Positions 1,908 to 27,209 of a DNA stretch of 64,000 nucleotides are shown here, one piece after another. The stretch covers positions 7,862-71,861 of the forward strand of contig PKRI02000004.1 in the NCBI GenBank assembly GCA_017577485.2, read 5' to 3'. The number at the start of each line of letters is the position of its first letter. Positions within the stretch are counted from its first letter, which is position 1. This DNA is from Bacillota bacterium (GTDB lineage: Bacteria; Bacillota; Sulfobacillia; Thermaerobacterales; RSA17). The position numbers and the translations under genes are program-made. The notes under the pieces were generated by a model that saw nothing but the letters and a program-made list of their open reading frames with translations, had not been told where the DNA came from and ran no database searches.

Positions 1908-3350
1908 TTACCGTCGCCTGGGCGGCAGCACGTGAATGGGCTGGCCCAGCGCCGCCTCGGCGGCCTCCATGATGCTTTCCGGCAGGGTCGGGTGGGGATG
2001 GATGGTCAGCGCCAGGTCCTCCAGGCGCGCCGCCATCTCCACGGCCAGGGCGCCCTCGCCGATCAGGTCCGAGGCCCCGTGGCCCACGATGTGCACGCCC
2101 AGCACCACGTGGCTGGACGCGTCGGCCACCACCTTGACGAAGCCCTCGGACTCGCCGGTGGTAAGGGCGCGGCCCGAGGCCGCGAAGGGGAACCGCCCGA
2201 CCATGACCTGGTACCCCTGGGCCTCGGCCTGGGTTTCCGTCAGCCCCACGCTGGCGATCTCGGGGTCGGTGAAGATGACGGCGGGGATGGCCGCCGGCTC
2301 GAAGGCCGCCGGCTCGCCGGCGATGACCTCGGCGGCCACGATGCCCTCGTGGGAGGCCTTGTGGGCCAGCATGGCGCCGCCCACCACGTCGCCGATGGCG
2401 AAGATGTGGGGCGCGCTGGTGCGCATCTGCTGGTCCACGGGGATGAAGCCCCGGTCGTCGACCCGGACGCCGGCGCGGTCCAGGCCCAACCCCTCGCTGT
2501 TGGGGCGCCGGCCCACGCAGACCAGCACCCGGTCGGCATCGACGGTGAAGGTCTCCTCCTGGCCGCCGTCGCCCCGCCGGCTGAGGCGCACCTTGGCCAC
2601 CCGGCCGTCGTCCTCGAATCCCTGGGCCAGGGTGTTCACGTGGACCTCGACCCCCAGGCGCCGCAGCCTGCGGGCCACCACCTGCACCAGTTCCGGGTCG
2701 GTGCCGGGCAGCAGCCGGTCCGCCGCCTCCACCACCGTGACCCGGGAGCCCAGCTTGGCGTAGACGGTGCCCAGTTCCAGCCCGATGTAGCCGCCGCCGA
2801 TCACCAGCAGGTGCCCGGGCAGTTCGGTCAGCGCCAGGGCGTCGGTGGACGACAGGATCCGCCGGCCGTCGAAGGGGAAGGCCGGCAGTTCCACGGGCCT
2901 GGACCCGGTGGCGATGATGGCGTGGTCGAACTTGTAGTGCTCGGCGCCGCCGCCGGCGGTCTCGACGATGATCTGGTTGGGGCCGGTGAAGGTGGCGGTG
3001 CCCATGGTGACCTGGACGTCGTTGCCCTTGAGCAGCTGCCCGACGCCGCCGGTCAGCCGGTCCACCACGCCCTGCTTCCAGGCCTGCAGCTTGTTCAGGT
3101 CGACCCGGGCGCCGCTGACCATAAGCCCCCGCTCGGCTTCCTCCTGCAGGCGGTGGTACAGCGAGGCCACCGAGATCAGCGCTTTGGACGGGATGCAGCC
3201 CACGTTCAGGCAGACGCCGCCCAGGGCCTCCCGCTCCACCAGCAGCACTTCCTTGCCCAGTTGAGCGGCCCGGATGGCGGCCACGTACCCTCCGGGGCCG
3301 CCGCCGATGACCACCACGTCGACGCCGGTGGCGATGTCGCCGACGACCAT
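1908..3350 (-). CDS. lpdA: Dihydrolipoyl dehydrogenase (E3)
   Basis: [20 protein letters not shown] redox disulfide, HPHPTLPE motif. Confidence 0.97.
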
Positions 3351-3351
3351 G

Positions 3352-4722
3352 TCAGACCATCTCCATGAAGAGCAGGTCCGGCTGCTCGAGATAAGCCATG
3401 ACGCGATTCAGGAAGCGGGCGGCGTAAGCGCCGTCGACGATGCGGTGGTCGAAGCTCAGGGCCAGCGGCAGCATGCTCCGCACCACGATCTGCCCGTCGC
3501 GGACCACCGGCTTCTCCTGGATCTTGTGGACGCCCAGGATGGCCACTTCGGGGTGGTTGATGATGGGCGTCGAGAAGATGCCGCCCAGGGCGCCGATGTT
3601 GGTGATGGTAAAGGTGCCGCCCCGCAGGTCCTCCAGGTCGATCTTGCGCTGGCGGGCCTTCTCGGTCAGGTACTGGATCTCGGCGGCGATCTGCAGGATG
3701 CTCTTGCGGTCGGCGTGCTTGACCACCGGCACGATCAGCCCGTCTTCGGTGTCGGTGGCGATACCGATGTTGTAGTAGCGCTTGAGGACGATCTCCTGGC
3801 GCTCGTCGTCGATGGTGGCGTTCAGATAGGGGAACTCCCGCAGCGCGGCGATCAGCGCCTTGGCGATGAAGGGCAGGTAGGTCAGCTTGATCCCCCGGGC
3901 CGCCGCCACTTCCTTCGCCCGCTGCCGCAGGGCCACCAGTTCCGTCACGTCCACCTCGTCCACGTGGGTGACGTGGGGCGCCGTGTACATGGACTTGACC
4001 ATGCGCTCGGCGATGGTGCGCCGCAGGCCCCGCAGGGGGATGCGCTCCTCGGGCGTCTCGGCGTGGACGACCACGGGCTGGAACGCCGGCGCCGGCGCGG
4101 CCGGTGCCGCGGCCGGTTCGGGAGCGGCGGCCGGCGCGGGCGCCGCCGCCGGGGCCGGAGCGCGCCGCCCCTCGGCGAAGGCGCGCACGTCCTCGTCGGT
4201 GACGCGGCCGCCGGGACCGGTGCCCGGCACCTGGTTGATGTCCACGCCCAGTTCCCGGGCCAGGCGCCGGGTGGCCGGCGTGGCCAGGGCGCGGCGCCCG
4301 GGCGCCGGGGCGGGTGCGGCCGCCGGAGCCGCAGGCGCTGCCGGTGCCGGTGCGGCGGGTGCCGGTGCGGCCGGTGCCGCCGGTCCTTCACTGCCGGTCC
4401 GGTGGGCGGCGGCCACGGCCTCCGCCGCCGCGGCCTGGCCGTTGCCGGTGGGCGCCGCCGCCGCGGCGGCACCAGGGGCCTCGCCGTCCGTGCCGATGGT
4501 GATGAACACGCTGCCGACCTCGATGATGTCGCCTTCCTTGTAGTGCAGCTTCAGGACCGGGCCCGCCACGGGGGAGGGGATCTCCACCACGGCCTTGTCG
4601 GTCTGGATTTCCACCAGGGGCTGATCCTCGGTCACATGGTCGCCCTCAGCCACCAGCCAGCGGACGACCTCGGCCTCGTGGATGCCCTCGCCCACGTCGG
4701 GCAGCTTGAACTCGAACGCCAT
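3352..4722 (-). CDS. pdhC: Dihydrolipoamide acyltransferase (E2)
   Basis: Single lipoyl domain (QTDKA), Ala/Pro linkers, E3-binding domain, DHRIVDG catalytic motif. Confidence 0.93.
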
Positions 4723-4740
4723 CGGGTCGCCTCCCCGAGC

Positions 4741-5721
4741 CTAGAAGGTCATGGCCTTGACGATGCCCCTGACCACCCGCTGGGGGTTGGGCAGGTATTC
4801 CTGCTCCAGGGCCAGCAGCGGCATTACCGTGTCGAATCCGGTGACGCGGACCACCGGCGCCTCGAGATAGAGCAGCGCGTGCTCGTTGATCAGCGCCACC
4901 AGTTCGGCGGCCAGCCCGCACTGCCGCGGCGCCTCGTGGACGATGACGCAGCGGCCGGTCTTCTGCACCGAGCCGACGACCGCATCGCGGTCCAGGGGCG
5001 AGATGGTGCGCAGGTCGATGATCTCGCAGGACCAGCCGTGCTCCTGCTCCACCTGCCGGGCGGCCTGCTCGGCCACGGGCACCATGGCGCCCCAGGCGAT
5101 CAGCGTCACGTCGGTCCCCTCGCGCACCAGGCGGGCCTTGCCGATGGGCACCGTATACTCGCCCTCCGGGACTTCTTCCCGGAAGGCCCGGTAGATGCTC
5201 TTGGGCTCCAGGAACAGGACCGGGTCGGGGTCGCGGATGGCCGAGATCAGCAGCCCTTTGGCGTCGTAGGGCGTGGAGGGGATGACCACCTTGAGCCCCG
5301 GGATGTGAGCGTAGAAGGCCTCCGGGCTTTCCGAGTGATGCTCGGGCGCGTGGATGCCGCCGGCATAGGGCGCCCGGATCACCATGGGCGCCGTGAAGCG
5401 TCCCCGGGACCGGTTCCGGATCCGGGCCACGTGGGAGATGATCTGATCATAAGCCGGGGGAAGGAAGCCGCAGAACTGGATCTCCGGCACCGGCCGCAGG
5501 CCGTAGACGGCCATGCCGAAGGCGGTGCCGATGATGGCCGACTCCGCCAGCGGGGTGTCGATGACGCGGTCGGGGCCGAACTCCTCGATCAGGCCCTCGG
5601 TGGCCCGGAAGACGCCGCCGTTGACGCCCACGTCCTCGCCCAGGACCACCACCCGGTCGTCCCGGCGCATCTCCACCCGCAGCGCGTCGGTGATGGCCTG
5701 CACCAGGGTCAGGCGCGGCAT
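4741..5721 (-). CDS. pdhB: Pyruvate/2-oxoacid dehydrogenase E1 beta
   Basis: GEDVGVNGGVFRAT, DTPLAE, PEHHSES motifs. Confidence 0.93.
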   Translation of the reverse strand: MPRLTLVQAITDALRVEMRRDDRVVVLGEDVGVNGGVFRATEGLIEEFGPDRVIDTPLAESAIIGTAFGMAVYGLRPVPEIQFCGFLPPAYDQIISHVARIRNRSRGRFTAPMVIRAPYAGGIHAPEHHSESPEAFYAHIPGLKVVIPSTPYDAKGLLISAIRDPDPVLFLEPKSIYRAFREEVPEGEYTVPIGKARLVREGTDVTLIAWGAMVPVAEQAARQVEQEHGWSCEIIDLRTISPLDRDAVVGSVQKTGRCVIVHEAPRQCGLAAELVALINEHALLYLEAPVVRVTGFDTVMPLLALEQEYLPNPQRVVRGIVKAMTF

Positions 5722-5723
5722 GT

Positions 5724-6863
5724 TCAGCGCGCCTCCCCGCGCTCTGCCAGCTCCTGCAGCAGCGCCTCCCGCTGCTCCTTCAGATTCCAGGGCAGTTCAG
5801 CGTACATGTAGTCGAACATGTTGGTGGGCTCGGGCTTCGGGTAATTCTCGGCCTTCCGCACCACCTCGGCCGCCCTCTCGCGCAGGCGCTCCTGCAGTTC
5901 TTCCTCCTGGGCCTCCGACCAGAGCCCCCGGCTCTCCAGGAAGCGGCGGAAGCGCATGATGGGATCGCGCCGTTCCTGCCACTCCTTCACCTCGTCGGCG
6001 GTGCGGTACCGGGTGGGGTCATCGGCGGTGGTGTGGGGGCCGTAGCGGTAGGTCACCGCTTCGATCAGGGTCGGCCCTTCGCCCCGGCGCGCGCGCTCCA
6101 CCGCTTCCCTGGTGACGGCGTAGACCGCCAGCACGTCGTTGCCGTCCACGCGCACGCCCGGGAAGCCGTAGGCTACGGCCTTCTGGGCGATGGTCCGGGA
6201 CGCCGTCTGGCGCTCCAGGGGCACGCTGATGGCGTAGTGGTTGTTCTGGCAGAACAAAACCACCGGCGCCTTGAAGACGCCGGCGAAGTTGGCCCCCTCG
6301 TGGAAGTCGCCCTCCGAGGTGCCGCCGTCGCCGAAGTAGACCAGGAACGCCTTCTTCTCGCCGCGGAGCCGCGCCGCCCACGCGGCCCCCACCGCATGGG
6401 GAACCTGGGTGGCGATGGGAATGGAGATGGTGAACACGTTGACGCCCTCAGGCGCCGCGGCGCCCTCCTCGCGGCCCATCCAGTACAGGAAGGTCAATTC
6501 CGGCGGCATGCCGTGGACCATCATGGCCGCCGATTCACGGTACGAAGGAAACAACCAGTCCTCTTTCTCCAGAGCGTAGGCGCTGCCGACCTGTGCCGCT
6601 TCCTGCCCGCCCACCGGAGGGTAGGTGCCCATGCGGCCCTGGCGCTGCATGTTCAGGGCCCGCTGGTCCAGGATGCGGGCGAAGACCATCCATTCATAGA
6701 GCTCTTTCATCTGGTCGTCGGTGAGGTCGGGCAGTGAGGCTTCATCGTAGGAACCGTCGTCCCGCAGGATCTGGATGGTTTCAAATTCCGGCTCGACGGG
6801 CTTGATCCAGCCCTCGACCCGCCGGCTGGCGGTGCGGGTCCTCTTGCCGCGCGTCTGCGCCAT
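5724..6863 (-). CDS. pdhA: Pyruvate/2-oxoacid dehydrogenase E1 alpha
   Basis: TPP motif GDGGTSEGDFHEG...QNN and HTTADDPTRYR; start moved to ATG 6863 after a GGAGG SD. Substrate (pyruvate or branched-chain) not determinable by eye. Confidence 0.9.
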   Translation of the reverse strand: MAQTRGKRTRTASRRVEGWIKPVEPEFETIQILRDDGSYDEASLPDLTDDQMKELYEWMVFARILDQRALNMQRQGRMGTYPPVGGQEAAQVGSAYALEKEDWLFPSYRESAAMMVHGMPPELTFLYWMGREEGAAAPEGVNVFTISIPIATQVPHAVGAAWAARLRGEKKAFLVYFGDGGTSEGDFHEGANFAGVFKAPVVLFCQNNHYAISVPLERQTASRTIAQKAVAYGFPGVRVDGNDVLAVYAVTREAVERARRGEGPTLIEAVTYRYGPHTTADDPTRYRTADEVKEWQERRDPIMRFRRFLESRGLWSEAQEEELQERLRERAAEVVRKAENYPKPEPTNMFDYMYAELPWNLKEQREALLQELAERGEAR

Positions 6864-6958
6864 CACCAGGCCTCCTTGTCCGCTGGTGCCGTTGTGGAAA
6901 ACGGAACTGTCGGCTCCTGCGCACACGGCTGGACGGGGGCCAGGACGGACCCTATGCT

Positions 6959-7123: not shown

Positions 7124-7717
7124 ATCAAGCCTGACTTCAAGCGCCTGGCGGCCGGCCTCACGGCAGCGCTGCTGCTCCTGGCGGCGGCGGTGCCGCCCGC
7201 CGCGGCAGCCGTGCAGCACCGGGTCGTGCGCGGCGAGTCCCTGTGGCTCATCGCCAATCGCTACAACACCAGCGTGGCCGCGCTGCAGCAGGCCAACGGC
7301 CTGAGCGGCACCGAGATCTACCCGGGTCAGATCCTGGTGATCCCCAACGCGCGGCGCGCCCTGTCGGCGGCGGATTTCGACCTGCTGGCCCGCATGGTCC
7401 ACGCCGAGGCCGAGGGCGAGCCCTATGCCGGGCAGGTGGCCGTGGCGGCGGTGATCCTGAACCGCCTGGACAGCCCGCTGTTTCCCGACACGGTCCGGGG
7501 CGTGATCTATCAGCCCTACCAGTTCGAGCCGGTGCTGAACGGGCGCATCAACCTGCCGGCGGGTCCCCTGGCCTACCGGGCGGTCCAGGACGCCCTGAAC
7601 GGCTGGGACCCCAGCTACGGGGCCCTGTACTTCTTCAACCCCGGCAAGACCCGCAACGCGTTCCTGTGGTCCCGGCCCCACACCGTCACCATCGGCAACC
7701 ACCGCTTCGCCCGCTGA
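7124..7717 (+). CDS. Secreted LysM + SleB/Hydrolase_2 cell-wall hydrolase (probable ATC start)
   Basis: LysM (HRVVRGESLWLIANRYNTSV) and SleB catalytic motif LARMVHAEAEGEPYAGQVAVAAVILNR...QFEPV...DPSYGALYFFNP...IGNHRF. A complete signal peptide needs the in-frame ATC at 7124 after SD AAGGGGGAG; first canonical start is GTG 7190. Confidence 0.88.
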   Translation: MKPDFKRLAAGLTAALLLLAAAVPPAAAAVQHRVVRGESLWLIANRYNTSVAALQQANGLSGTEIYPGQILVIPNARRALSAADFDLLARMVHAEAEGEPYAGQVAVAAVILNRLDSPLFPDTVRGVIYQPYQFEPVLNGRINLPAGPLAYRAVQDALNGWDPSYGALYFFNPGKTRNAFLWSRPHTVTIGNHRFAR

Positions 7718-7795
7718 GGCGCCGCCGCCCCCGGTGCGGGCAGCGGCCGTCGCGTCCAGGTCGCCGTCCGGGGACGGAATGCCGGTGGGCGCCCG

Positions 7796-8038
7796 TCACA
7801 GGTGGGCGCCCACCAGTTCCGCGGCCTCGCCGGGGTTCGGGAACCGGCCGGTGGCCTTCTTGTCGTAGACCAGACGGTCGCCGACGTAGATCTGGAAGAT
7901 GCCGCCGCTGCCCGGCTGCAGCACCAGCGCCGAGACCTGGGCGGCGTACAGTTCAAGGATTTCGCCGGCCGCACGGGCGGCGTGACCGGCGTAGCCTCAA
8001 GCCACGCAGAAGATGATGGTCACCTGGGGTCCCTGCAT
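7796..8038 (-). CDS. Rdx/SelW/SelT-family selenoprotein (CxxU, UGA at codon 14)
   Basis: Manual translation MQGPQVTIIFCVAUGYAGHAARAAGEILELYAAQVSALVLQPGSGGIFQIYVGDRLVYDKKATGRFPNPGEAAELVGAHL; GGAGGG SD; Rdx signature motifs; hairpin just 3' of the UGA. Confidence 0.85.
7964..7990 (-). promoter_or_regulatory. Candidate bacterial SECIS hairpin
   Basis: GCCGGU-CACG-CCGCC-CGUG-CG-GCCGGC stem-loop beginning 6 nt 3' of the in-frame UGA. Confidence 0.6.
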
Positions 8039-8155
8039 GGACAGCCCTCCCGCGTCCGGCCAGGCCGGGGACCCGGCCTGGCATGCTTACACTCTTGTTA
8101 TAACCCGGCGGGGACCGGCGGTCCTGCCGGGCGCCGGCGGCGCACTGCCCGCGGC

Positions 8156-8185
8156 TTGACGCTCCGCGGCGCCGCCGCTTACGAT
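8156..8185 (+). promoter_or_regulatory. SigA-type promoter for rpsD
   Basis: TTGACG-18nt-TACGAT. Confidence 0.65.
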
Positions 8186-8190
8186 TAGAA

Positions 8191-8232
8191 ACGGCTGCTG
8201 GCACGTGGTTGAAACCAACCACGTGACGGAGG
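8191..8232 (+). promoter_or_regulatory. rpsD leader hairpin (possible S4 autoregulatory site)
   Basis: GGCTGCTG followed by the perfect 10-bp stem CACGTGGTTG-AAAC-CAACCACGTG immediately before the SD. Confidence 0.45.
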
Positions 8233-8242
8233 TTTGACGGAT

Positions 8243-8851
8243 TTGGCGAGGTACACCGGACCCAAGCACAAGATGTGCCGCCGCGTCGGCGAGCCCCTGT
8301 GCGGATCGCCCAAGTGCCCGGCCCTGAAGCGCAGCTACCCGCCGGGCCAGCACGGGCCCAACCTGCGGCAGCGCAAGCTCAGCGAGTACGGCGTGCGGCT
8401 GCAGGAGAAGCAGAAGGCCCGCTACATCTACGGCCTGCTGGAGCGGCAGTTCCGCCGTTATTTCCAGCGAGCGGCCAGGGCCCGCGGCAAGACCGGCGAG
8501 ATGCTGCTGCGCCTGTTGGAGACGCGGCTGGACAGCCTGGTTTACCGCATGCAGCTGGCCCGCAGCATGCGCCAGGCCCGGCAGCTGGTCACCCACGGCC
8601 ACTTTACCGTCAACGGCCGCAAGGTGAACATCCCCTCCTACCAGGTGCGGCCCGGCGACGTCATCGCTGTGCGGGAGAAGAGCCGGAACCTGCAGGTCAT
8701 TCGCGAGAACGCCGAAACGGCCAACCCCAACCTGCCCTACATCGAGGTGGATCCGGAACGCCTGGAGGGCAAGTTGCTGCGGTGGCCCGAGCGGGACGAG
8801 ATCCCCGTCAACATCGACGAGACGCTGATCGTCGAGTTCTATTCCCGCTGA
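8243..8851 (+). CDS. rpsD: 30S ribosomal protein S4
   Basis: MARYTGP...YPPGQHG...SEYG..L.EKQK...ARQLVTHGH...IVEFYSR; TTG 8243 fits SD spacing. Confidence 0.98.
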   Translation: MARYTGPKHKMCRRVGEPLCGSPKCPALKRSYPPGQHGPNLRQRKLSEYGVRLQEKQKARYIYGLLERQFRRYFQRAARARGKTGEMLLRLLETRLDSLVYRMQLARSMRQARQLVTHGHFTVNGRKVNIPSYQVRPGDVIAVREKSRNLQVIRENAETANPNLPYIEVDPERLEGKLLRWPERDEIPVNIDETLIVEFYSR

Positions 8852-8893: not shown

Positions 8894-9376
8894 TCAACCG
8901 CGCAGGGCCTCTTTGATTTCGGGGCTGGCGTGGCGCCAAAATTCCAGGCCGCGGCCCTTGAGCTCCGCCGCCAGGGCGGTGCGGCCCTCCGGCGGCAGCC
9001 CTTCGACGTTGACGTGGCCGTCCAGCGCCGCCTTCATGGCGTTGACGTGGGTGGGCATGTGCTTGTAGCCCACCATGGCGTCGCGGTCGATGAGCATCTC
9101 GCACACCGTCAGGCCCCGGTAGCCGCGGCGGCCGTCGGGTCCCCGTCCCAGGGTGACCCAGGCCACCCAGTACCGGCGGCCGTTGGGCACCTCGGACGGG
9201 TCCTTCACCCAGCGCACGCCCTGTTCCACCGGGCTGCGGCCGTGCAGGGCGCCGGGAGCCACGTAGGCATGGGTTCCCTCGATGATCACCGCCGACAGGT
9301 TGCCCAGGGACTGGGCCTGGTCGTCGGCCACGGGGATGATGCGCAGCACTTCATCTTCCGGCTCCAGGGGCGCCAC
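8894..9376 (-). CDS. YwhD-family protein
   Basis: GALHGRSPVE, VPNGRRYWVAWV, CEMLID, GYK.MP.HVN resemble B. subtilis YwhD (recognised from memory); GTG after GGAGG. Confidence 0.75.
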   Translation of the reverse strand: MAPLEPEDEVLRIIPVADDQAQSLGNLSAVIIEGTHAYVAPGALHGRSPVEQGVRWVKDPSEVPNGRRYWVAWVTLGRGPDGRRGYRGLTVCEMLIDRDAMVGYKHMPTHVNAMKAALDGHVNVEGLPPEGRTALAAELKGRGLEFWRHASPEIKEALRG

Positions 9377-9419
9377 GGAATCCAGCCTCCTCCGCTCGGC
9401 AGGGTTGCGGGGGCGGGCC

Positions 9420-10589
9420 TCAGCGGGCCCTGCCGCCCAGTTTCTCCAGCAGGGCCGCCAGCAGGCCGCGGCCGGGCGCGTGGTCGCCGCCCCCGTCGCG
9501 CTCCTCACCTTCGCCGCCGCCGGGAGCGCCGGCCGGCTCTGGGGCGGCCAGGGCTCCCCGCTGCCAGTCCAGGAACAGCCGGTAGGCCAGCGCCGTCACC
9601 GGCGCCGCCAGGAAGGCGCCCACCAGGCCGGCCACCTCCAGGCCCGCCAGCAGGGCCAGCAGCGCGGCCAGCGGGTGCAGCCCCACGGCCTGGCCGGTGA
9701 TGCGCGGCACCAGCAGGTGGTTTTCCAGCTGGGCCACCACCACCAGGAAGACGGCCACGTAGAGCACGGTGGGGAAGGGCTGGGCCAGCGCCAGGGCCAG
9801 CGGCAGGATGCTGCCCAGCAGCGCGCCCACCGAGGGGATCAACTCGAAGAGCCCGGCCTGCAGACCCACCAGCGCCGGGTAGGGCAGGCCGAAGAGGCGG
9901 GCGCCGGCGCCCACCGTCACGCCGATGATCAGGCCTAGCAGCAGCTGCCCCCGCAGGTAGCCGCCGAACACGTCGGCGGCGTTCCGCTCCACGTGGGCGA
10001 CCCCGCGCCGCCAGGGCTCGGGCAGCGCCTGGTAGAAGCGGTCCCGCAGGCGGGGGCCGTCCAGCAGCAGGTAAAGGGCGATGACCACCGCCGCCAGCGC
10101 CCCGGCCAGCACGGCGCCGATGCGGCCGGTGATGACCGCGGCGCTGCTCAGCAGGGAGCCCACCGCCGCCTGCAGGCGGCCCGCGGCCTGGCGAACCAGG
10201 TCGGCCTCGTCAAACTGGATACCCCGGGACTGCAGCCACCGGCGCAGGCCGGCCAGGGCGTCCACGGCGCGCTGCTGCCACCGGGGCAGGTCCTCCAGCA
10301 CGTCCCGCAGGTCGGCTGCCAGGGGCCCGGCCACCAGCGCCAGGAAGGCGGCGGTGGCGGCCAGGCAGCCCACGGCGGTCACGGCCACCGCCAGGCCCCG
10401 GCGGCGCAGGAGGCGGGACAGCCGGTCCACCAGCGGCCGGGCGACGAAAGCCAGGGCGGCGCCCAGAGCGAAGACCGCCAGCGTCTGCAGGAAGCGGCCC
10501 AGCACGATCCCGATCAACGCCAGGACCCCCGCCAGGCTCAGCAGGGCCAGGCAGACGATCAGGACCCGCGTCCAGTCAATCCGGGGCAC
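9420..10589 (-). CDS. AI-2E (PerM/YdiK) family membrane transporter
   Basis: Multiple TM segments, LLDG, GYLRGQ, IP.VG, LENHLLVPRITGQAVGLHP; start ATG 10595 or GTG 10589. Confidence 0.88.
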   Translation of the reverse strand: MPRIDWTRVLIVCLALLSLAGVLALIGIVLGRFLQTLAVFALGAALAFVARPLVDRLSRLLRRRGLAVAVTAVGCLAATAAFLALVAGPLAADLRDVLEDLPRWQQRAVDALAGLRRWLQSRGIQFDEADLVRQAAGRLQAAVGSLLSSAAVITGRIGAVLAGALAAVVIALYLLLDGPRLRDRFYQALPEPWRRGVAHVERNAADVFGGYLRGQLLLGLIIGVTVGAGARLFGLPYPALVGLQAGLFELIPSVGALLGSILPLALALAQPFPTVLYVAVFLVVVAQLENHLLVPRITGQAVGLHPLAALLALLAGLEVAGLVGAFLAAPVTALAYRLFLDWQRGALAAPEPAGAPGGGEGEERDGGGDHAPGRGLLAALLEKLGGRAR

Positions 10590-10649
10590 GGCCATCCCCC
10601 GCGCTTCCAGTAGGCGGCCGGCGGCGCCGGGGCCTGAAGCCGGCTCGGT

Positions 10650-11534
10650 TCAGGCGAACTCCGCCAGGATCTTCGCCCACTCCGCCGGGTCGCGCTGCAG
10701 TTCCTGCGCCGCGATGGGTTCCGGCCGGTAGCCCGGCAGCAGTTCTTCATAGGTAGGCACGTCGGTGGCCCGGTAGATGAGGCCGGTGACCAGGTCGTCC
10801 TTGTCGATGACCGTGTTCAGCGCGGCCTGCCAGTTGCCGGGATCGTAGGATTCGTCGTCGTCCAGGTTGACCAGCCGTTCCTTGTACCAGTCGTAGGTGT
10901 TGATCTTGTTGTAGGTGACGCAGGGGCTGTACACGTTGACCAGGGCGAAGCCCTTATGCTGGATGGCGCCCTTGATCAACCGGGCCAGGTGCTTGGGGTC
11001 GCCCGAGAACCCCTGGGCCAGGTAGGTCACCCCGGCCACCAGCGCCATCCGCAGCGGCGTGATGGGCCGGTCGATGGCTCCCGTGGGCGCCGACGTGGTC
11101 CGGGATCCCAGGTGGGTGGTGGGCGACGTCTGGCCCTTGGTCAGCCCGTAAACCTTGTTGTCCATGACGATGTAGGTGATGTCGACGTTGCGGCGGGCGG
11201 CGTGGATGAAGTGGTTGAGGCCGATGCCGTACCCGTCGCCGTCACCGCCGGCGGCGATGACGGTCAGGTCCCGGTTGGCCAGCTTGATGCCGGTGGCCAC
11301 GGGCATGGTCCGGCCGTGCACCACGTGCACGCTGTAGGAGCGGAAGTAGTCGCCGATCTTGCCCGAGCAGCCGATGCCGGCCACCAGCACCGTCCGCGCC
11401 GGGTCCAGGTTCAGGTCGGCCGCCGCCATCTGCAGGGCGCGCAGCACCGCGAAGTCGCCGCATCCGGGGCACCACCACGGCGCCGCGTCGGTGGCGTAAT
11501 CCTTGGGCGAACGCCGGTCGATCACCGTGGCCAT
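10650..11534 (-). CDS. 2-oxoacid:ferredoxin oxidoreductase beta subunit
   Basis: WCPGCGD, GIGCS, GGDGD, YGLTKGQTSPT, SPCVTYN. Confidence 0.95.
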   Translation of the reverse strand: MATVIDRRSPKDYATDAAPWWCPGCGDFAVLRALQMAAADLNLDPARTVLVAGIGCSGKIGDYFRSYSVHVVHGRTMPVATGIKLANRDLTVIAAGGDGDGYGIGLNHFIHAARRNVDITYIVMDNKVYGLTKGQTSPTTHLGSRTTSAPTGAIDRPITPLRMALVAGVTYLAQGFSGDPKHLARLIKGAIQHKGFALVNVYSPCVTYNKINTYDWYKERLVNLDDDESYDPGNWQAALNTVIDKDDLVTGLIYRATDVPTYEELLPGYRPEPIAAQELQRDPAEWAKILAEFA

Positions 11535-13279
11535 CACAGCATCGCCTCGCATTCCCGCATGATCTCGCTGGGCAAGAACGGCGTGCCGTCGTACTTGAGG
11601 ACGGAATGCAGCCGGTCCTTGTCGGCGGTCCCGATCTCCTGGCGCAGCAGCCGGGCCAGCTGGCCGCGGGCATTGTTCTCGACCACCACCACCCGCCGTG
11701 CCTGGGCGATCCGCGACGCCAGGACGCCGGCGGGCAGCGGCTCCAGCAGCCGGATGTGGCCGTGGGCCACTGACGCGCCCTGCCGCTCCAGCCGTTCCCG
11801 GGCCTCCGCCAGGGGCCCGTAGGTGGAGCCCCAGCCCAGCAGCAGCAGGTCCGGCGCTTCCGGCCCGTCAAAGGTGACCGGCGGGATGGCGTCGTTCAGT
11901 TCCACCGATTGAAACTTGCGCAGCCGCTTGTCGGTCATGCGCACGCGGTTGCGGCGGTCTTCGGTGATGTGGCCCGTCTCGTCGTGCTCGAGGCCGGTGG
12001 CCAGGTGCAGGCCGCCGGGCATGCCGGGCAGGGACCGGGGCGAGATGCCGCTGTCGGTGAAGCGATAGCGCTTGAAGTCGGCATCTTCGGGCCCCAGCTC
12101 CTCCGGAGCGGCCACCAGGCCGCGGTCGATCTTCACCCGGCTGAAGTCCAGGTCGTCGACGGTCTGGATGGCCAGGCCCACGGCCAGGTCCATGGCCAGG
12201 ATCACGGGCGTCTGGTAGCGCTCGGCCAGGTTGAAGGCCTCGGCCGCGCCGTAGAAGCATTCCTCGGCGGTGGCCGGCGCCAGCACGATCCGGGGCAGGT
12301 CGCCGTGGGAGCCGTACAGCATCTCGAAGAGATCCGACTGCTCGTGCTTGGTGGGCATGCCGGTGCTGGGCCCGGCCCGCTGCACGTCCACGATGACCAC
12401 CGGCGCCTCGATCATGCCCGCGTAACCCAGGGCTTCCATCATCAGCGAGAACCCTGGGCCCGAGGTGGCGGTCATGGCCCGGACGCCGGCGTAGCCGGCA
12501 CCCACCGCCAGGGTGATGGCGGCGATCTCGTCTTCGGTCTGCACCACCACCCCGCCGAACTGGGGCAGTTTCGGGACCAGCCAGTGCATGATGTCGCTGG
12601 CCGGGGTGATGGGGTACGCGGCGATCAGCCGGCACCCGCCCACCAGCGCGCCGAAACCGGCGGCGTCGTCACCGGTCATGGTGTAGCGCCGCCGGCCGTC
12701 GCCTGCCTCCAGGCGCAGGTCGCTGCAGGCGGCCTGGCCGGCGAGCCGCTCGTAGCCGGCCCGGAAGGCCCGGCGGTTGGCCTCGACCACCTTCTCACCC
12801 TTGCTGCCGAACCGCTCGGCGATCAGATCGTCGAAGGCGTCCACCGGCAGTCCCAGCAGCGCCGCCGAAGCGCCGGCGCCCACCATGTTCTTCATGATGA
12901 CGCCGCCCACATCGCGGGCGATGCCGGTCAGGGGCACGCCCAACACCCGAACGCCGTCGCCTGCTTCGGGCAGTTGGGGATGGGCCTCCTCATCGTCGAT
13001 GACGACCACGGCTCCCGGGGTCAGCTGCGCGGCATTGCGCCGGACGCTGTCGCGGTCGAAGGCGATCAGCACGTCCACGTGGTCGCTGTTGGCCAGAACA
13101 CGGCGGGTGGCGATCCGGATCCGAAAGTTGGTGTGGCCGCCCTTGATCCGTGAAGAAAACGTTCGGTAACCGTAAATGTGGTAGCCCAGGCGATTGAGCC
13201 CGGCCGAGAGCACGTAACCCGTGCTCTCGATGCCCTCGCCCTGCTGCCCGCCGACCATCCAGGTGAGCTCCGACCGCAT
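11534..13279 (-). CDS. 2-oxoacid:ferredoxin oxidoreductase alpha subunit (gamma-alpha fusion)
   Basis: GGQQGEG, YPITP, EDE, ATSGPG, QRAGPSTGMPT; start moved to ATG 13279; TGATG overlap with beta. Confidence 0.95.
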   Translation of the reverse strand: MRSELTWMVGGQQGEGIESTGYVLSAGLNRLGYHIYGYRTFSSRIKGGHTNFRIRIATRRVLANSDHVDVLIAFDRDSVRRNAAQLTPGAVVVIDDEEAHPQLPEAGDGVRVLGVPLTGIARDVGGVIMKNMVGAGASAALLGLPVDAFDDLIAERFGSKGEKVVEANRRAFRAGYERLAGQAACSDLRLEAGDGRRRYTMTGDDAAGFGALVGGCRLIAAYPITPASDIMHWLVPKLPQFGGVVVQTEDEIAAITLAVGAGYAGVRAMTATSGPGFSLMMEALGYAGMIEAPVVIVDVQRAGPSTGMPTKHEQSDLFEMLYGSHGDLPRIVLAPATAEECFYGAAEAFNLAERYQTPVILAMDLAVGLAIQTVDDLDFSRVKIDRGLVAAPEELGPEDADFKRYRFTDSGISPRSLPGMPGGLHLATGLEHDETGHITEDRRNRVRMTDKRLRKFQSVELNDAIPPVTFDGPEAPDLLLLGWGSTYGPLAEARERLERQGASVAHGHIRLLEPLPAGVLASRIAQARRVVVVENNARGQLARLLRQEIGTADKDRLHSVLKYDGTPFLPSEIMRECEAML

Positions 13280-13368
13280 CGCCGACTCCCCTAAAACGAT
13301 GGACCGGACCGCCGGCCCAGTCCCTGTGATGTCACCGTACTCGCCAGGGCGTCTCACTGGCGTGCTTA

Positions 13369-13377
13369 ATTGTAGCA
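13369..13377 (-). promoter_or_regulatory. Extended -10 promoter for the oxidoreductase operon
   Basis: Minus strand TGcTACAAT in the divergent intergenic region. Confidence 0.45.
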
Positions 13378-13457
13378 CAATACAGCACGGCCGGGGCACG
13401 GCGGGCCCGGCAGGCGCTGGACCGCTTTCCGCCAAAGTAGGCGGCGGGAGGATGGCG

Positions 13458-14168
13458 ATGGCTCCCACCGATGTGTCACGGCTCCTGGACGACCTGCCCC
13501 CGGACTTCGACCGCCAGCGCTTCGCCGCGGTGTACGCCGAGGCGGCAGGCGCCGCGGCGGCGGCGCGGACCCCGGGCCGCGAGCCGGGCTACCGGCTGCT
13601 GCACGGCCACCGCGTGGCACGCCTGGGCCTGGAGCTCTTGGACCAGCCCGATGTGGCTGCCGCCGGTCCCGGACCCCACGCTCGCATCGTGGTCTGGCTG
13701 GCCGGCCTGATCCACGACCTGTTCAAGGAAACCCTCGGCGCCGACCCGCCCGGCACCGACCATGCCGACCTGGCCGCCCGCTGGGCCGAGGCGCGCCTGC
13801 CCGGCCATTTCGGCGGGGAGGTCGGCCGGCAGGTGGCCGAGGCATGCTATCTCCACAACAAGCGTCACCTGCCGGCGCCGGTGGAGGCGCAGGTCCTGCA
13901 GGACGCCGACCTGCTGGACCACTTCGGCGCCCAGGAGGTGTGGCTGGCCGCCTACTACAGCGGCGCCCGGAACCAGGGCCTGGACGACGGCCTGGCCTAC
14001 CTGACCGGACCGCGCAACGCCGGGTGGCGGCGCTACGCCCTCGACCACGTCCGCTTCGACAGCGCCCGGGCGTCCCTCCAGGAACGGCTGCGGTACGCCG
14101 ACGCCCTGGTCCGCCGCCTGGAGGCCGAAAGCCGGGGCCGGCTCTGGCCGTCGGGGGACGTGTGGTAG
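13458..14168 (+). CDS. HD-superfamily metal-dependent phosphohydrolase
   Basis: H(LLHGHRV)...IHDL...DHA...LHN...QDADLLD; GGGAGG SD. Confidence 0.82.
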   Translation: MAPTDVSRLLDDLPPDFDRQRFAAVYAEAAGAAAAARTPGREPGYRLLHGHRVARLGLELLDQPDVAAAGPGPHARIVVWLAGLIHDLFKETLGADPPGTDHADLAARWAEARLPGHFGGEVGRQVAEACYLHNKRHLPAPVEAQVLQDADLLDHFGAQEVWLAAYYSGARNQGLDDGLAYLTGPRNAGWRRYALDHVRFDSARASLQERLRYADALVRRLEAESRGRLWPSGDVW

Positions 14169-14199
14169 AATCTTCACACAGGCCAGGGAGGTGTGGATC

Positions 14200-15171
14200 G
14201 TGGCAGCGGTCGAGAACGTCGTCATCATCGGCTCCGGACCTGCAGGTCTCACGGCCGCGCTGTACGCCGCCCGTGCGGGCCTGGAACCCCTGGTGGTCGC
14301 CGGCTTCCAGGCCGGCGGGCAGTTGATGCTGACCACCGAGGTGGAGAACTTCCCCGGTTTTCCCGACGGCATCATGGGCCCGGAACTGATGACGCGGATG
14401 CGCCAGCAGGCCCAGCGCTTCGGGACCCGCTTCATCGACGCCGACGCCGACGAGGTGGACTTCTCCGGTCACCCGCTGCGGGTCAAGGCCCAGGGATGCT
14501 GGATCGACGCCCGGGCCGTGATCATCGCCACCGGCGCCTCGGCCAGGTGGCTGGGGGTGCCGGGCGAGGAGCGGCTGCGCGGGCACGGCGTCTCTTCGTG
14601 CGCCACCTGCGACGGCTTCTTTTTCCGGGAGCGCGACGTGGTGGTGGTGGGCGGCGGCGACTCCGCCATGGAGGAAGCCCTGTTCCTGGCCAATCTGTGC
14701 CGCAGCGTGACGGTGGTACACCGCCGCCGGGAACTGCGGGCCAGCAGGATCATGCAGGAGCGCGCCCTGAACCACCCGCGCATCCGGTTCATCTGGGACA
14801 CCGTGGTCGAGGAGATCCTGGGCGACGACCGCGTGACGGGCGTGCGCCTGCGCAACGTGCAGACCGGCGAGACCCGGGACCTGGCCTGCGACGCCGTCTT
14901 CGTGGCCATCGGCCACCAGCCCAACACCGCCATCTTCCGCGGCCAGGTGGAACTGGACCAGGACGGGTACGTGCGCATGTACCCCGGGATGCGCACCAGC
15001 CGCGAGGGCGTCTTCGTGGCCGGCGACGCCGAGGACCGGCGCTACCGCCAGGCCATCACCGCCGCGGCCGCGGGCTGCAAGGCGGCCATGGAAGTGGAAC
15101 GCTGGCTGGCCGAGCAGCCGCTGGAGCCGACCGCCCCGGCCGACGCAGCGGCCGCCCGGGACGGCCGCTGA
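14200..15171 (+). CDS. trxB: Thioredoxin-disulfide reductase
   Basis: GSGPAG, ENFPGF, CATCDG, GGGDSA, YRQAITAA. Confidence 0.96.
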   Translation: MAAVENVVIIGSGPAGLTAALYAARAGLEPLVVAGFQAGGQLMLTTEVENFPGFPDGIMGPELMTRMRQQAQRFGTRFIDADADEVDFSGHPLRVKAQGCWIDARAVIIATGASARWLGVPGEERLRGHGVSSCATCDGFFFRERDVVVVGGGDSAMEEALFLANLCRSVTVVHRRRELRASRIMQERALNHPRIRFIWDTVVEEILGDDRVTGVRLRNVQTGETRDLACDAVFVAIGHQPNTAIFRGQVELDQDGYVRMYPGMRTSREGVFVAGDAEDRRYRQAITAAAAGCKAAMEVERWLAEQPLEPTAPADAAAARDGR

Positions 15172-15187
15172 GCGACGGGAACCGCCG

Positions 15188-16552
15188 GTGAGCCGGGCGC
15201 GGACGGTCTACATCTGCCAGGAGTGCGCCTACCGCTCGCCCCGCTGGCTGGGGCGCTGCCCGGGCTGCGGCGGCTGGAACACCATGGCCGAGGAGCGCCA
15301 ACCCCATGCGCCCGCCGGCCGCCGCGACGCCGCCGGCCGGCCCGTTTCTCCCGTGCTGCTCACCGACGCCGTCGAGCCCCACCCCCACCGCCTGTCCACC
15401 GGCAGCGGGGAACTGGACCGGGTACTGGGCGGCGGCATCGTGCCGGGCTCCCTGGTCCTCATCGGCGGCGACCCCGGGATCGGCAAGTCGACGCTGCTGC
15501 TGCAGGTGGCCGCCCACGTGGCCGCTTCTCAGGGAAACTTCCTTTATATATCTGGCGAGGAATCGGCCGCTCAGGTGGCCATGCGCGGCCGGCGGCTGGG
15601 CATCGACGCCGGCCGCCTTTACTTGCTGGCGGAAACGGACATAAGGATGATGGAGCAGGCTTTCGACGAGGTGCGCCCGGTGGCGGCAGTGATCGACTCG
15701 ATCCAGACGGTTTACGACCCGGAACTGGGCAGCGCCCCGGGCAGCGTCACCCAGGTGCGGGAGTGCGCCGCCCAGTTCCTGAGGCTGGCCAAGACCCGGG
15801 GCACCGCGGTATTCCTGGTGGGCCACGTGACCAAGGGCGGCGACCTGGCCGGTCCCCGTACCCTGGAGCACATCGTCGACGCCGTGCTGTATTTCGAGGG
15901 CGACCGCCATCACGTGTACCGCATCCTGCGGGCGGTCAAGAACCGCTTCGGCGCCACCAACGAGGTGGGCCTGTTTGAGATGACCGCCGCCGGCCTGCGG
16001 GAGGTGCCCAGCCCGTCGGAAGCGCTGCTGGCCGAGCGCCCGCAGCAGGCTTCGGGGTCCGTGGTGGTGGCCGGCATCGAGGGCACCCGCCCGCTGCTGG
16101 TGGAGGTCCAGGCTCTGCTGGCGGCCTCGCCCTTCGGCCATCCCCGGCGCACGGTCAGCGGCCTGGACGCCAACCGGGTGGCCTTCATCCTGGCGGTGCT
16201 GGAGAAGCGCGGCGGCCTGCGGGTGGGCACCCACGACGCCTACCTCAAGGTATCGGGCGGCCTGCGGCTGTCGGAGCCCGCCGCGGATCTGGGCATCGCC
16301 GTGGCGGTGGCGTCGTCCTTCCTGGACCGTCCCGCCGCCGCCGACACGGCGGTGTTCGGTGAGGTAGGCCTGAGCGGCGAGGTCCGGGCGGTGACCCGGG
16401 TGGAGCCGCGGCTGCAGGAGGCGGCGCGGATGGGGCTCACACGGTGCGTGCTGCCGGCCGGCAACCTGCGGGGGGCGCCGGCGGCGCCCGGCGGCATCCA
16501 ACTGGTTGGGGTGACCACCGTCAGCGAGGCGCTCGAGGTGATGCTGGGCTGA
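15188..16552 (+). CDS. radA: DNA repair protein RadA/Sms
   Basis: CQECAY...CPGC Zn finger, GDPGIGKST, KNRFG. Confidence 0.97.
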   Translation: MSRARTVYICQECAYRSPRWLGRCPGCGGWNTMAEERQPHAPAGRRDAAGRPVSPVLLTDAVEPHPHRLSTGSGELDRVLGGGIVPGSLVLIGGDPGIGKSTLLLQVAAHVAASQGNFLYISGEESAAQVAMRGRRLGIDAGRLYLLAETDIRMMEQAFDEVRPVAAVIDSIQTVYDPELGSAPGSVTQVRECAAQFLRLAKTRGTAVFLVGHVTKGGDLAGPRTLEHIVDAVLYFEGDRHHVYRILRAVKNRFGATNEVGLFEMTAAGLREVPSPSEALLAERPQQASGSVVVAGIEGTRPLLVEVQALLAASPFGHPRRTVSGLDANRVAFILAVLEKRGGLRVGTHDAYLKVSGGLRLSEPAADLGIAVAVASSFLDRPAAADTAVFGEVGLSGEVRAVTRVEPRLQEAARMGLTRCVLPAGNLRGAPAAPGGIQLVGVTTVSEALEVMLG

Positions 16553-26444: not shown

Positions 26445-26520
26445 GCTGGCGTAGCTCAACGGGTAGAGCGGTCGACTTGTAATCGACAGGTTAGCGGTTC
26501 GAGTCCGCTCGCCAGCTCCA
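26445..26520 (+). tRNA. tRNA-Thr(TGT)
   Basis: Cloverleaf, anticodon arm GTCGA-CTTGTAA-TCGAC, GTTCGA, encoded CCA. Confidence 0.97.
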
Positions 26521-26538
26521 GTTTGACCCGGCAATTTT

Positions 26539-26621
26539 GGAGAGGTACCGAAGCGGCCAAACGGGGCAGACTGTAAATCTGCTGGCTCTTGCCTTCGGAG
26601 GTTCGAATCCTCCCCTCTCCA
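26539..26621 (+). tRNA. tRNA-Tyr(GTA)
   Basis: GCAGA-CTGTAAA-TCTGC, long variable arm; CCA not encoded. Confidence 0.96.
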
Positions 26622-26680
26622 CAAGAAGCTTGCGGCCCCGGCGCCGTCGCGGTGTGCGGGGCCGGTCAACCCAGGTTTGA

Positions 26681-26757
<77 letters not shown>

Positions 26758-26808
26758 TTGCACGGCCCGGAGATGAAGGTGATCCCGGATCCGGCCGATT
26801 TTTTTGGC

Positions 26809-26881
26809 GCTGGCGTAGCTCAGTAGGCAGAGCACCTCCATGGTAAGGAGGGGGTCGGCGGTTCGATTCCGCCCGCCAGCT
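26809..26881 (+). tRNA. tRNA-Thr(GGT)
   Basis: CCTCC-ATGGTAA-GGAGG, GTTCGA; CCA not encoded. Confidence 0.96.
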
Positions 26882-26948
26882 CAGGGGCCCGGCGCAGCCG
26901 GGCCTTGCATGTCGGCAGGGCACCGTCCCGCGGTCGGGAGGAAGCGCC

Positions 26949-27110
26949 ATGGCGTCGGAGGTTCGCGTCATCGTCACGCTGGAGTGCACCCAGTGCAAGC
27001 GCCGGAATTACTCGACCACCAAGAACCGGCGCACCATGCAGGGGCGGCTCGAACTGCGCAAGCACTGCCCCCACTGCAACGCCCACACCTTGCACCGCGA
27101 AACGCGGTGA
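26949..27110 (+). CDS. rpmG: 50S ribosomal protein L33 (Zn-binding form)
   Basis: Manual translation [26 protein letters not shown]...[18 protein letters not shown]; GGAGG SD. Confidence 0.96.
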
Positions 27111-27135
27111 GTTAAAATACGGCTGCAGTTTTTCT

Positions 27136-27209
27136 AGGCCCGTAGCTCTAACTGGCAGAGCAGCGGACTCCAAATCCGCGGGTTGGGGGTTCGAATCCCT
27201 CCGGGCCTG
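27136..27209 (+). tRNA. tRNA-Trp(CCA)
   Basis: GCGGA-CTCCAAA-TCCGC, GTTCGAA; 3' CCA not encoded. Confidence 0.95.

Follow-up and report, generated by a model that had tools for sequence, protein, structure and literature searches.

The window, by which we mean the whole 64,000-nucleotide stretch of DNA analysed here, has a G+C content of 69.8% and belongs to a bacterial genome assembled to 2.01 Mb in 101 contigs (97.6% complete, 1.7% contaminated). On its minus strand lies a short reading frame that is interrupted at its fourteenth codon by an in-frame UGA, and that very probably encodes a small selenoprotein. The features of this gene and of its surroundings that are relevant to the discussion below are as follows.

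1908-6926, minus strand: 2-oxoacid dehydrogenase operon (E3, E2, E1 beta, E1 alpha)
7190-7717, plus strand: cell-wall hydrolase with LysM and Hydrolase_2 (SleB-type) domains, convergent to the SelW-like gene
7796-8038, minus strand: coding sequence of the putative SelW-like (Rdx family) selenoprotein, 80 sense codons plus a terminal TGA at 7798-7796
7963-7991, minus strand: putative SECIS hairpin of the source genome, beginning 5 nt past the UGA, with an 8-bp lower and a 3-bp upper stem closed by a 5-nt loop (CGCCC); present in the minimum-energy and centroid folds
7966-7980, minus strand: site of the SECIS hairpin conserved across the family (5-6 bp), from alignment A1 and pair counts
7999-7997, minus strand: in-frame UGA at codon 14, predicted to be read as the selenocysteine (Sec) of a CxxU motif on the basis of a conserved TGA column and of Sec machinery in the genome
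8008-8006, minus strand: TGC codon of Cys11, the predicted resolving partner in the CxxU motif; an invariant alignment column, placed by the structural model where strand beta1 ends
8038-8036, minus strand: ATG start codon of the SelW-like gene, read from the sequence
8050-8045, minus strand: Shine-Dalgarno sequence GGAGGG, with a 6-nt spacer to the ATG, read from the sequence
8059-8082, no strand assigned: perfect palindrome whose 11-bp arms flank a 2-nt spacer, located 20 nt ahead of the SelW-like ATG
8234-8851, plus strand: rpsD, divergent from the SelW-like gene
8894-9508, minus strand: YwhD
9420-10595, minus strand: AI-2E transporter
10650-13468, minus strand: 2-oxoacid:ferredoxin oxidoreductase, two subunits
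13221-14168, plus strand: possible HD-domain gene
14191-15171, plus strand: TrxB (TIGR01292, 392 bits against a cut-off of 343.45)
15188-16552, plus strand: RadA
26445-27209, plus strand: cluster of five tRNA genes (Rfam RF00005, 58-72 bits)

A reading frame hidden by its own UGA

The frame opens with the ATG at 8038, which is the earliest ATG, GTG or TTG past the upstream in-frame stop. Ten codons run from the ATG to the TGC of Cys11, two separate this TGC from the TGA, and 66 sense codons follow. An earlier note on this DNA, made from the letters alone, had reported the gene with its coordinates, ribosome binding site and codon count, and every one of these values was re-read from the sequence and agreed. 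The same note had remarked that the gene is absent from the open reading frame track, and indeed a listing under translation table 11 gives just a 42-amino-acid remnant at this locus (7796-7924). The G+C content of the complete frame by codon position is 0.72/0.47/0.86, a pattern like that of confidently identified neighbours such as TrxB (0.72/0.50/0.93) and rpsD (0.65/0.43/0.93).

Two plus-strand open reading frames lie opposite the SelW-like gene, at 7243-8016 (257 amino acids) and at 7802-8188 (128 amino acids). Their G+C contents by codon position, 0.87/0.75/0.50 and 0.82/0.58/0.73, respectively, are the profiles of non-coding shadow frames, and a Pfam scan of the frame at 7243-8016 returned no match. 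A gene caller could report these shadow frames in place of the SelW-like gene.

A promoter and terminator scan of the minus strand at the SelW-like gene detected neither element. The single promoter-like site that was found (8156-8185) is on the plus strand and fits rpsD. The palindrome at 8059-8082 sits in the divergent intergenic region common to the SelW-like gene and rpsD, and is the sole full copy of this sequence in a genome that carries 313 perfect inverted repeats with arms of at least 10 bp in total. It could form a hairpin in the 5' untranslated region or serve as an operator. As a candidate for a conserved regulatory site it was rejected, given that an inverted repeat of at least 7 bp is found upstream of only 2 of 26 other homologues and that the sequences of these repeats are unrelated.

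The SelW-like gene is monocistronic, and little of its surroundings recurs elsewhere. In 20 other genomes, the 20 kb surrounding the homologue was compared with 13 proteins encoded near the gene in the source genome. TrxB was found near the homologue in one of the 20 and a lipoamide-dehydrogenase-like protein in two, one of which is a weak cross-match over the same TrxB region; the other 11 neighbours were found in none. Likewise, Pfam analysis of 90 open reading frames within approximately 2.4 kb of the homologue at 18 of the 20 loci (two loci from the same genus were dropped for size) uncovered no recurring redox partner, and neighbours are held in common only within a genus or family. Within one genus, for instance, an arginase occurs with a MutY-like gene, and two genomes from a single family both carry an enoyl-ACP-reductase-like gene. 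Scattered redox genes, namely FMN_red, OsmC and a DUF255 thioredoxin-like gene, appear once each.

These comparisons bear on a proposal that the protein may be recycled by the TrxB encoded about 6 kb away. The distance stands (6.2 kb), but the recycling link is not supported: at least five genes separate trxB from the SelW-like gene, trxB is on the other strand, and of the 20 other genomes just one encodes a TrxB no more than 10 kb from the homologue. Reduction of a thioredoxin-fold CxxU protein by a thioredoxin system is a reasonable guess on biochemical grounds, and the specific connection to this TrxB has no genomic support.

Two other aspects of the neighbourhood may be of use to readers. 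A complete 2-oxoacid dehydrogenase operon (1908-6926) and a 2-oxoacid:ferredoxin oxidoreductase (10650-13468) lie within 12 kb of each other. In addition, the LysM and Hydrolase_2 (SleB-type) and YwhD families are typical of endospore-forming Firmicutes, and here a gene of each is carried by a genome of 70% G+C and 2.0 Mb; the loci in our phylum sample span 35-76% G+C.

Family membership, predicted fold and conservation of the UGA

The protein obtained by reading through the UGA belongs to the Rdx, or SelW-like, family. The comparison with the Pfam Rdx profile (PF10262) that the earlier note had proposed gave a match of 67.5 bits (E = 1.2e-18, cut-off 22.6) covering profile positions 1-72 of 74, and the NCBIfam model TIGR02174 (CXXU_selWTH) was matched at 55.2 bits, with a cut-off of 34.2. 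The equivalog model NF041051 (SelTWH_Campy) aligned over positions 1-69 of 70, but its score of 63.2 bits falls below the curated cut-off of 88, which keeps the gene out of that equivalog. It is the only Rdx-family gene in the source genome. Three motifs had been put forward as hallmarks of the family in this protein. The CxxU motif is present as described, whereas the element given as 'G.G.FE(I/V)' actually reads GSGGIFQI, with Q rather than E, and the 'GFP-like' element reads GRFP.

An AlphaFold2 model built on 28 homologues has a mean pLDDT of 97 and a pTM of 0.87. Its elements are b1 (5-11), a1 (17-31), b2 (37-43), b3 (48-52), b4 (55-59), a short helix (60-63) and a C-terminal helix (71-79), and the predicted structure therefore presents the thioredoxin-like order b1-a1-b2-b3-b4-a2. 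The CxxU motif, C11-V-A-U14, is placed by the model directly after strand b1 and before a1, and both motif columns are invariant in alignment A2, which holds 28 sequences. A Foldseek search of the PDB returned 2fa8, 2oka, 2obk, 3dex, 2ojl and 2p0g as the top six matches (TMq 0.87-0.94, rmsd 1.0-1.2 A), several of which were deposited as selenoprotein W-related or putative selenoprotein W-related proteins. Mouse SelW (2npb) and MIEN1 (2ljk) come next with TM scores of 0.67-0.68, followed by thioredoxins at approximately 0.6.

Homologues of the gene were collected from two sets of genomes. In a sample of 40 related genomes, a homologue was found in 10, each of which has exactly one in-frame TGA. 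In an even sample of 400 other genomes across the phylum, a homologue was found in 26, and 25 of these have exactly one TGA. Pooling of the two samples and removal of duplicates left 32 sequences, that of the window included, and C-x-x-U is present at the same column in 31 of them. The sequences thus show the family, in this phylum sample, kept almost always in what would be its Sec form. The exception (G287:C12:56949-57131, minus strand) carries CGA (Arg) at the Sec column, a single-base difference from TGA; this homologue, the weakest match of all (E = 9e-4), may be a degenerate or functionally different relative. One of the 25 (G340:C5:83407-83613, plus strand) carries the conserved TGA plus an internal TAG in the conserved ...SKK.TGRFP stretch, and could be a pseudogene or reflect a sequencing error.

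Identity to the protein of the window within alignment A2 is 27-45%, such that the closest homologue found is at most 45% identical. Retention of the TGA in 31 of 32 sequences at this level of divergence is not compatible with a nonsense mutation. Moreover, the source-genome protein keeps every residue that is invariant or nearly so in the family.

Relatives in the public databases are mostly of a different form. A profile search of 1.84 billion representative proteins returned 2997 at E <= 0.001 (655 at E <= 1e-10), and the motif columns were tallied for 179 domains from the best 150 of the 2997. Cysteine occupies both motif columns in 143 of these domains, 18 have C..W, 8 start after the motif and 10 have other arrangements. 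The tryptophan cases (for example P0003, P0007, P0015 and P0017) are probably products of gene callers that translated TGA as Trp, and the domains that start past the motif are probably genes clipped by automatic callers. A word-indexed search of 5.8 billion predicted proteins with the read-through query found no relative of comparable length. Taken with the genome samples, these data answer the question raised in the earlier note of whether homologues have C or U at position 14: they show U, or else C in the CxxC forms.

Selenocysteine machinery and hairpins behind the UGA

Genes for the synthesis and insertion of selenocysteine, which the earlier note had named as a check, were looked for in the genome, and all of them are present above their cut-offs. 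SelA scores 583.8 bits (cut-off 267.9), SelB 375.7 bits over positions 1-577 of 581 (cut-off 242.25) and SelD 397.9 bits (cut-off 125). The tRNA-Sec scores 80.1 bits against a gathering score of 47, and is reported by ARAGORN as tRNA-SeC with anticodon tca. Two further genes of the genome carry an in-frame UGA. One is selD itself (G000:C73:7570-8496, minus strand), whose single TGA falls in ...GGUGCK..., which we take to be the active-site Cys/Sec position of SelD. The other encodes the formate dehydrogenase alpha subunit FdhA (G000:C84:272-2281, minus strand; TIGR01591, 743.6 bits, cut-off 666.25), also with one TGA. Each of these UGAs is followed by an 8-bp G+C-rich hairpin, which starts 10 nt after the UGA in selD and 13 nt after it in the FdhA gene. 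The presence of UGA-bearing SelD and FdhA genes argues that Sec decoding is in use in this organism, and along with the machinery it lends support to the proposal of the earlier note that the organism would decode Sec.

When the genome was scanned crudely for TGA codons with coding signal on either side, 41 candidates emerged, which were judged by eye. FdhA was the sole one recognised, and most of the others resemble adjacent genes in the same frame. Given that the scan missed both the SelW-like gene and SelD, it does not constitute a census of the selenoproteome, and further selenoproteins may exist. TGA otherwise behaves as a stop codon at this locus: it ends 11 of 13 local genes, the SelW-like gene included, and is found inside none of the other 12. 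Trp is encoded by TGG.

Comparative evidence for a SECIS element was sought in an alignment (A1) of 30 of the 32 pooled sequences, which is ungapped from the UGA onward. The homologue that lacks the TGA (G287) and one sequence identical to another (G004, the same as G002) were dropped. RNAalifold and manual inspection yield a hairpin with its stem beginning 16 nt beyond the UGA. Across its six pairs (180 cells), 90.6% of cells are paired, compared with 81.4 +/- 1.2 in shuffled alignments (reached by 0 of 500) and 25.0-65.0% in six slid registers. Cells changed on both sides number 16, compared with 3.8 +/- 1.6 in shuffles (again reached by 0 of 500), and the covariation score is 0.341, compared with 0.171 +/- 0.020 for shuffled alignments and 0.066-0.178 for slid registers. 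The slid registers are the more telling control, because related sequences can outperform shuffles without any structure. Two other measures are not distinctive, namely the number of pairs with a double change (3, reached by 199 of 500 shuffles) and the number of further pair types (8, reached by 141 of 500).

The most variable pair of columns, 24/36, is occupied by CG in 17 sequences, UA in 5, AU in 2, GC in 2 and UG in 1, and is unpaired in 3. These columns are synonymous sites, the third positions of two codons that mostly specify Ala. Complementarity that is kept at such sites argues for selection acting on the RNA. Searches with Rfam at gathering thresholds recognised only the five tRNAs in the window, and a permissive scan of 7700-8250 produced no more than noise below threshold.

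The source genome departs from the family hairpin at precisely this pair, where it has a C-C mismatch that weakens the family register. The fold in that register has an energy of -3.0 kcal/mol, whereas -8.8 kcal/mol is reached by a fold of 5 bp that is offset by one to two bases. For the 45 nt that follow the UGA, the fold of lowest energy (-22.2 kcal/mol) contains instead the longer hairpin at 7963-7991, which resembles the post-UGA hairpins of the SelD and FdhA genes of the same genome in size and distance. Its two strands fall in codons that have diverged from those of most relatives (YAGH versus YLP(R/K), and AAG versus VAE). The folding of this single sequence is not exceptional: the 76-nt fold has a z-score of -0.42 and is equalled by 56 of 200 shuffles, and 8.2% of 2000 random 45-mers from the window fold as well as the 45 nt after the UGA. 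Because single-sequence folding is not significant in this DNA of 70% G+C, we used the comparative data as evidence for the SECIS. Both hairpins are in accord with the published description of bacterial SECIS elements, in that the family hairpin covaries, and that of the source genome, with its 5-nt loop, begins 5 nt past the UGA.

Since the family register is mismatched and weak here, recognition by SelB in this organism would depend on a lineage-specific fold that lacks comparative support. One possible account is that the SECIS was rebuilt in place in this lineage, in which the family hairpin was broken and a stem of 11 bp located 5 nt after the UGA was substituted for it through amino-acid replacements on both flanks. 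We offer this account tentatively and regard it as somewhat doubtful. If true, it would provide a natural example of a protein helix co-evolving with an RNA element inside it, and the register at which this SelB reads its signal may have shifted too.

Interpretation and relation to known systems

Our confidence is high that the locus carries a monocistronic gene for an 80-residue SelW-like selenoprotein, in which the UGA at codon 14 specifies Sec by way of a SECIS element and SelB, and whose product is likely a thiol/selenol oxidoreductase. This is in essence the reading that the earlier note had advanced, namely a hidden Rdx/SelW gene with a CxxU motif, and the profile match, the U or C at the corresponding column of homologues and the Sec machinery all favour it. 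In the mechanism we envisage, the ribosome would read the UGA at codon 14 as selenocysteine, with an mRNA stem-loop right behind it, a bacterial SECIS, recruiting SelB that carries Sec-tRNA(Sec). No such hairpin follows the second UGA, at codon 81, and this codon would terminate translation. Cys11-x-x-Sec14 would be positioned between beta1 and alpha1 of what is most likely a small thiol/selenol oxidoreductase, and would cycle between a reduced form and an intramolecular selenenylsulfide. What the analysis shows is the structure of the gene, its family, the predicted fold, the conserved UGA, the covarying SECIS of the family and the Sec machinery; we infer both the actual insertion of Sec at codon 14 and this redox cycle.

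Among other explanations, the one that deserves the most attention accepts the gene as real and supposes that its UGA is decoded poorly or not at all, such that the family SECIS has decayed, the gene is being lost and the main product is a 13-residue peptide. Several observations point in this direction, including the C-C mismatch at the pair that covaries most in the family hairpin, with its register at -3.0 kcal/mol, the failure of the alternative hairpin to stand out from background, and the fact that the sole genome of the same family in our sample (G001, 97% complete) is without a homologue. Against it, every invariant or nearly invariant residue of the family is kept, a coding signature extends across the whole frame (G+C of 0.86 at third positions), and a stronger hairpin of 8 + 3 bp is found at the same place, similar to those of SelD and FdhA in size and distance. 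We consider this explanation improbable. A pseudogene of a former CxxC protein, disrupted by a nonsense mutation, would account for a table 11 frame that is broken at codon 14, and CxxC forms do dominate the wider family (143 of the 179 domains from the best 150 proteins). Yet the TGA occupies the same column in 31 of 32 homologues that, in alignment A2, are 27-45% identical to the source-genome protein, a covarying hairpin is found behind it, and the genome holds complete Sec machinery along with two other UGA-bearing selenoprotein genes. The pseudogene reading is therefore very improbable, and is refuted as far as sequence can show.

It is still less credible that a standard amino acid is inserted at the UGA, be it Trp or Gly as codes 4 and 25 would have it, or that the codon is passed by plain read-through. 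Some annotation pipelines have probably translated relatives with Trp, as suggested by the W at the Sec column in 18 of 179 public predicted domains. Against this stand the use of TGA to end 11 of 13 local genes, its absence inside the other 12 and the encoding of Trp by TGG, as well as the alignment of the Sec column with the redox Cys of CxxC homologues and the presence of a tRNA-Sec with anticodon tca. Finally, the plus-strand frames at 7243-8016 (257 amino acids) and 7802-8188 (128 amino acids) are the longest table 11 open frames over the region, and one of them might be taken for the true gene. Both have shadow-frame G+C profiles, and the longer one lacks a Pfam match and overlaps the confidently identified LysM/Hydrolase_2 gene (7190-7717) in another frame, such that we assign a negligible chance to this possibility.

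With the selenoprotein reading preferred, the practical value of the locus is one of annotation. The gene vanishes under the standard code, and shadow frames on the opposite strand could be called instead. The 18 tryptophan-bearing and 8 truncated domains among the 179 suggest that Sec forms of this family are routinely mistranslated or clipped. For the small 2.0-Mb source genome, the gene would add one more selenoprotein to the Sec-containing SelD and FdhA. It opens no new question about bacterial SelW-like proteins, and the sole feature beyond the routine is the apparently rebuilt SECIS hairpin of this lineage.

Mammalian SelW (2npb) and MIEN1 (2ljk) have the thioredoxin-like Rdx fold and the position of the CxxU/CxxC motif in common with the protein described here. 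Their similarity to it (TM 0.67-0.68) is much lower than that of the bacterial SelW-related proteins, and for this reason their partners are not transferable. SelW has been reported to interact with glutathione, and eukaryotic SECIS elements are located in the 3' untranslated region (both as stated in passages of PMC1088965). A limited literature search for the function of any bacterial Rdx member returned mostly eukaryotic papers and none on this subject, a result that does not establish that such work is absent.

Much closer are the six bacterial proteins of solved structure, from Agrobacterium (2fa8), Pseudomonas aeruginosa (2oka), P. fluorescens (2obk), Streptomyces avermitilis (3dex), Bordetella (2ojl) and Vibrio (2p0g), which have the same full-length fold at 23-34% identity. 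These are structural-genomics targets to which no function has been assigned, and given the dominance of CxxC among public relatives they are presumably Cys forms.

The earlier note had regarded the family as already known, and bacterial SelW-like selenoproteins with CxxU have in fact been published by Zhang, Gladyshev and co-workers (PMC1088965, 2005; PMC1794560, 2006). Passages of the 2005 paper describe 'SelW-like' as the most abundant selenoprotein family in the Sargasso Sea data, with 48 Sec forms that carry CXXU, and call its function 'unclear' while suggesting a redox role. Passages of the 2006 paper list SelW-like for Symbiobacterium thermophilum, Alkaliphilus metalliredigenes and Desulfotomaculum reducens, among others. 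The gene reported here is thus a new member of a well-described bacterial selenoprotein family that has been in print since 2005. As far as those passages describe them, the published proteins share with it a length of approximately 80 residues, an N-terminal CxxU and a SECIS right after the UGA. The copy in the window differs in sharing no more than 45% identity with the closest homologue found, and in the stem behind its UGA, which is longer and specific to its lineage, whereas that of the family is a short hairpin.
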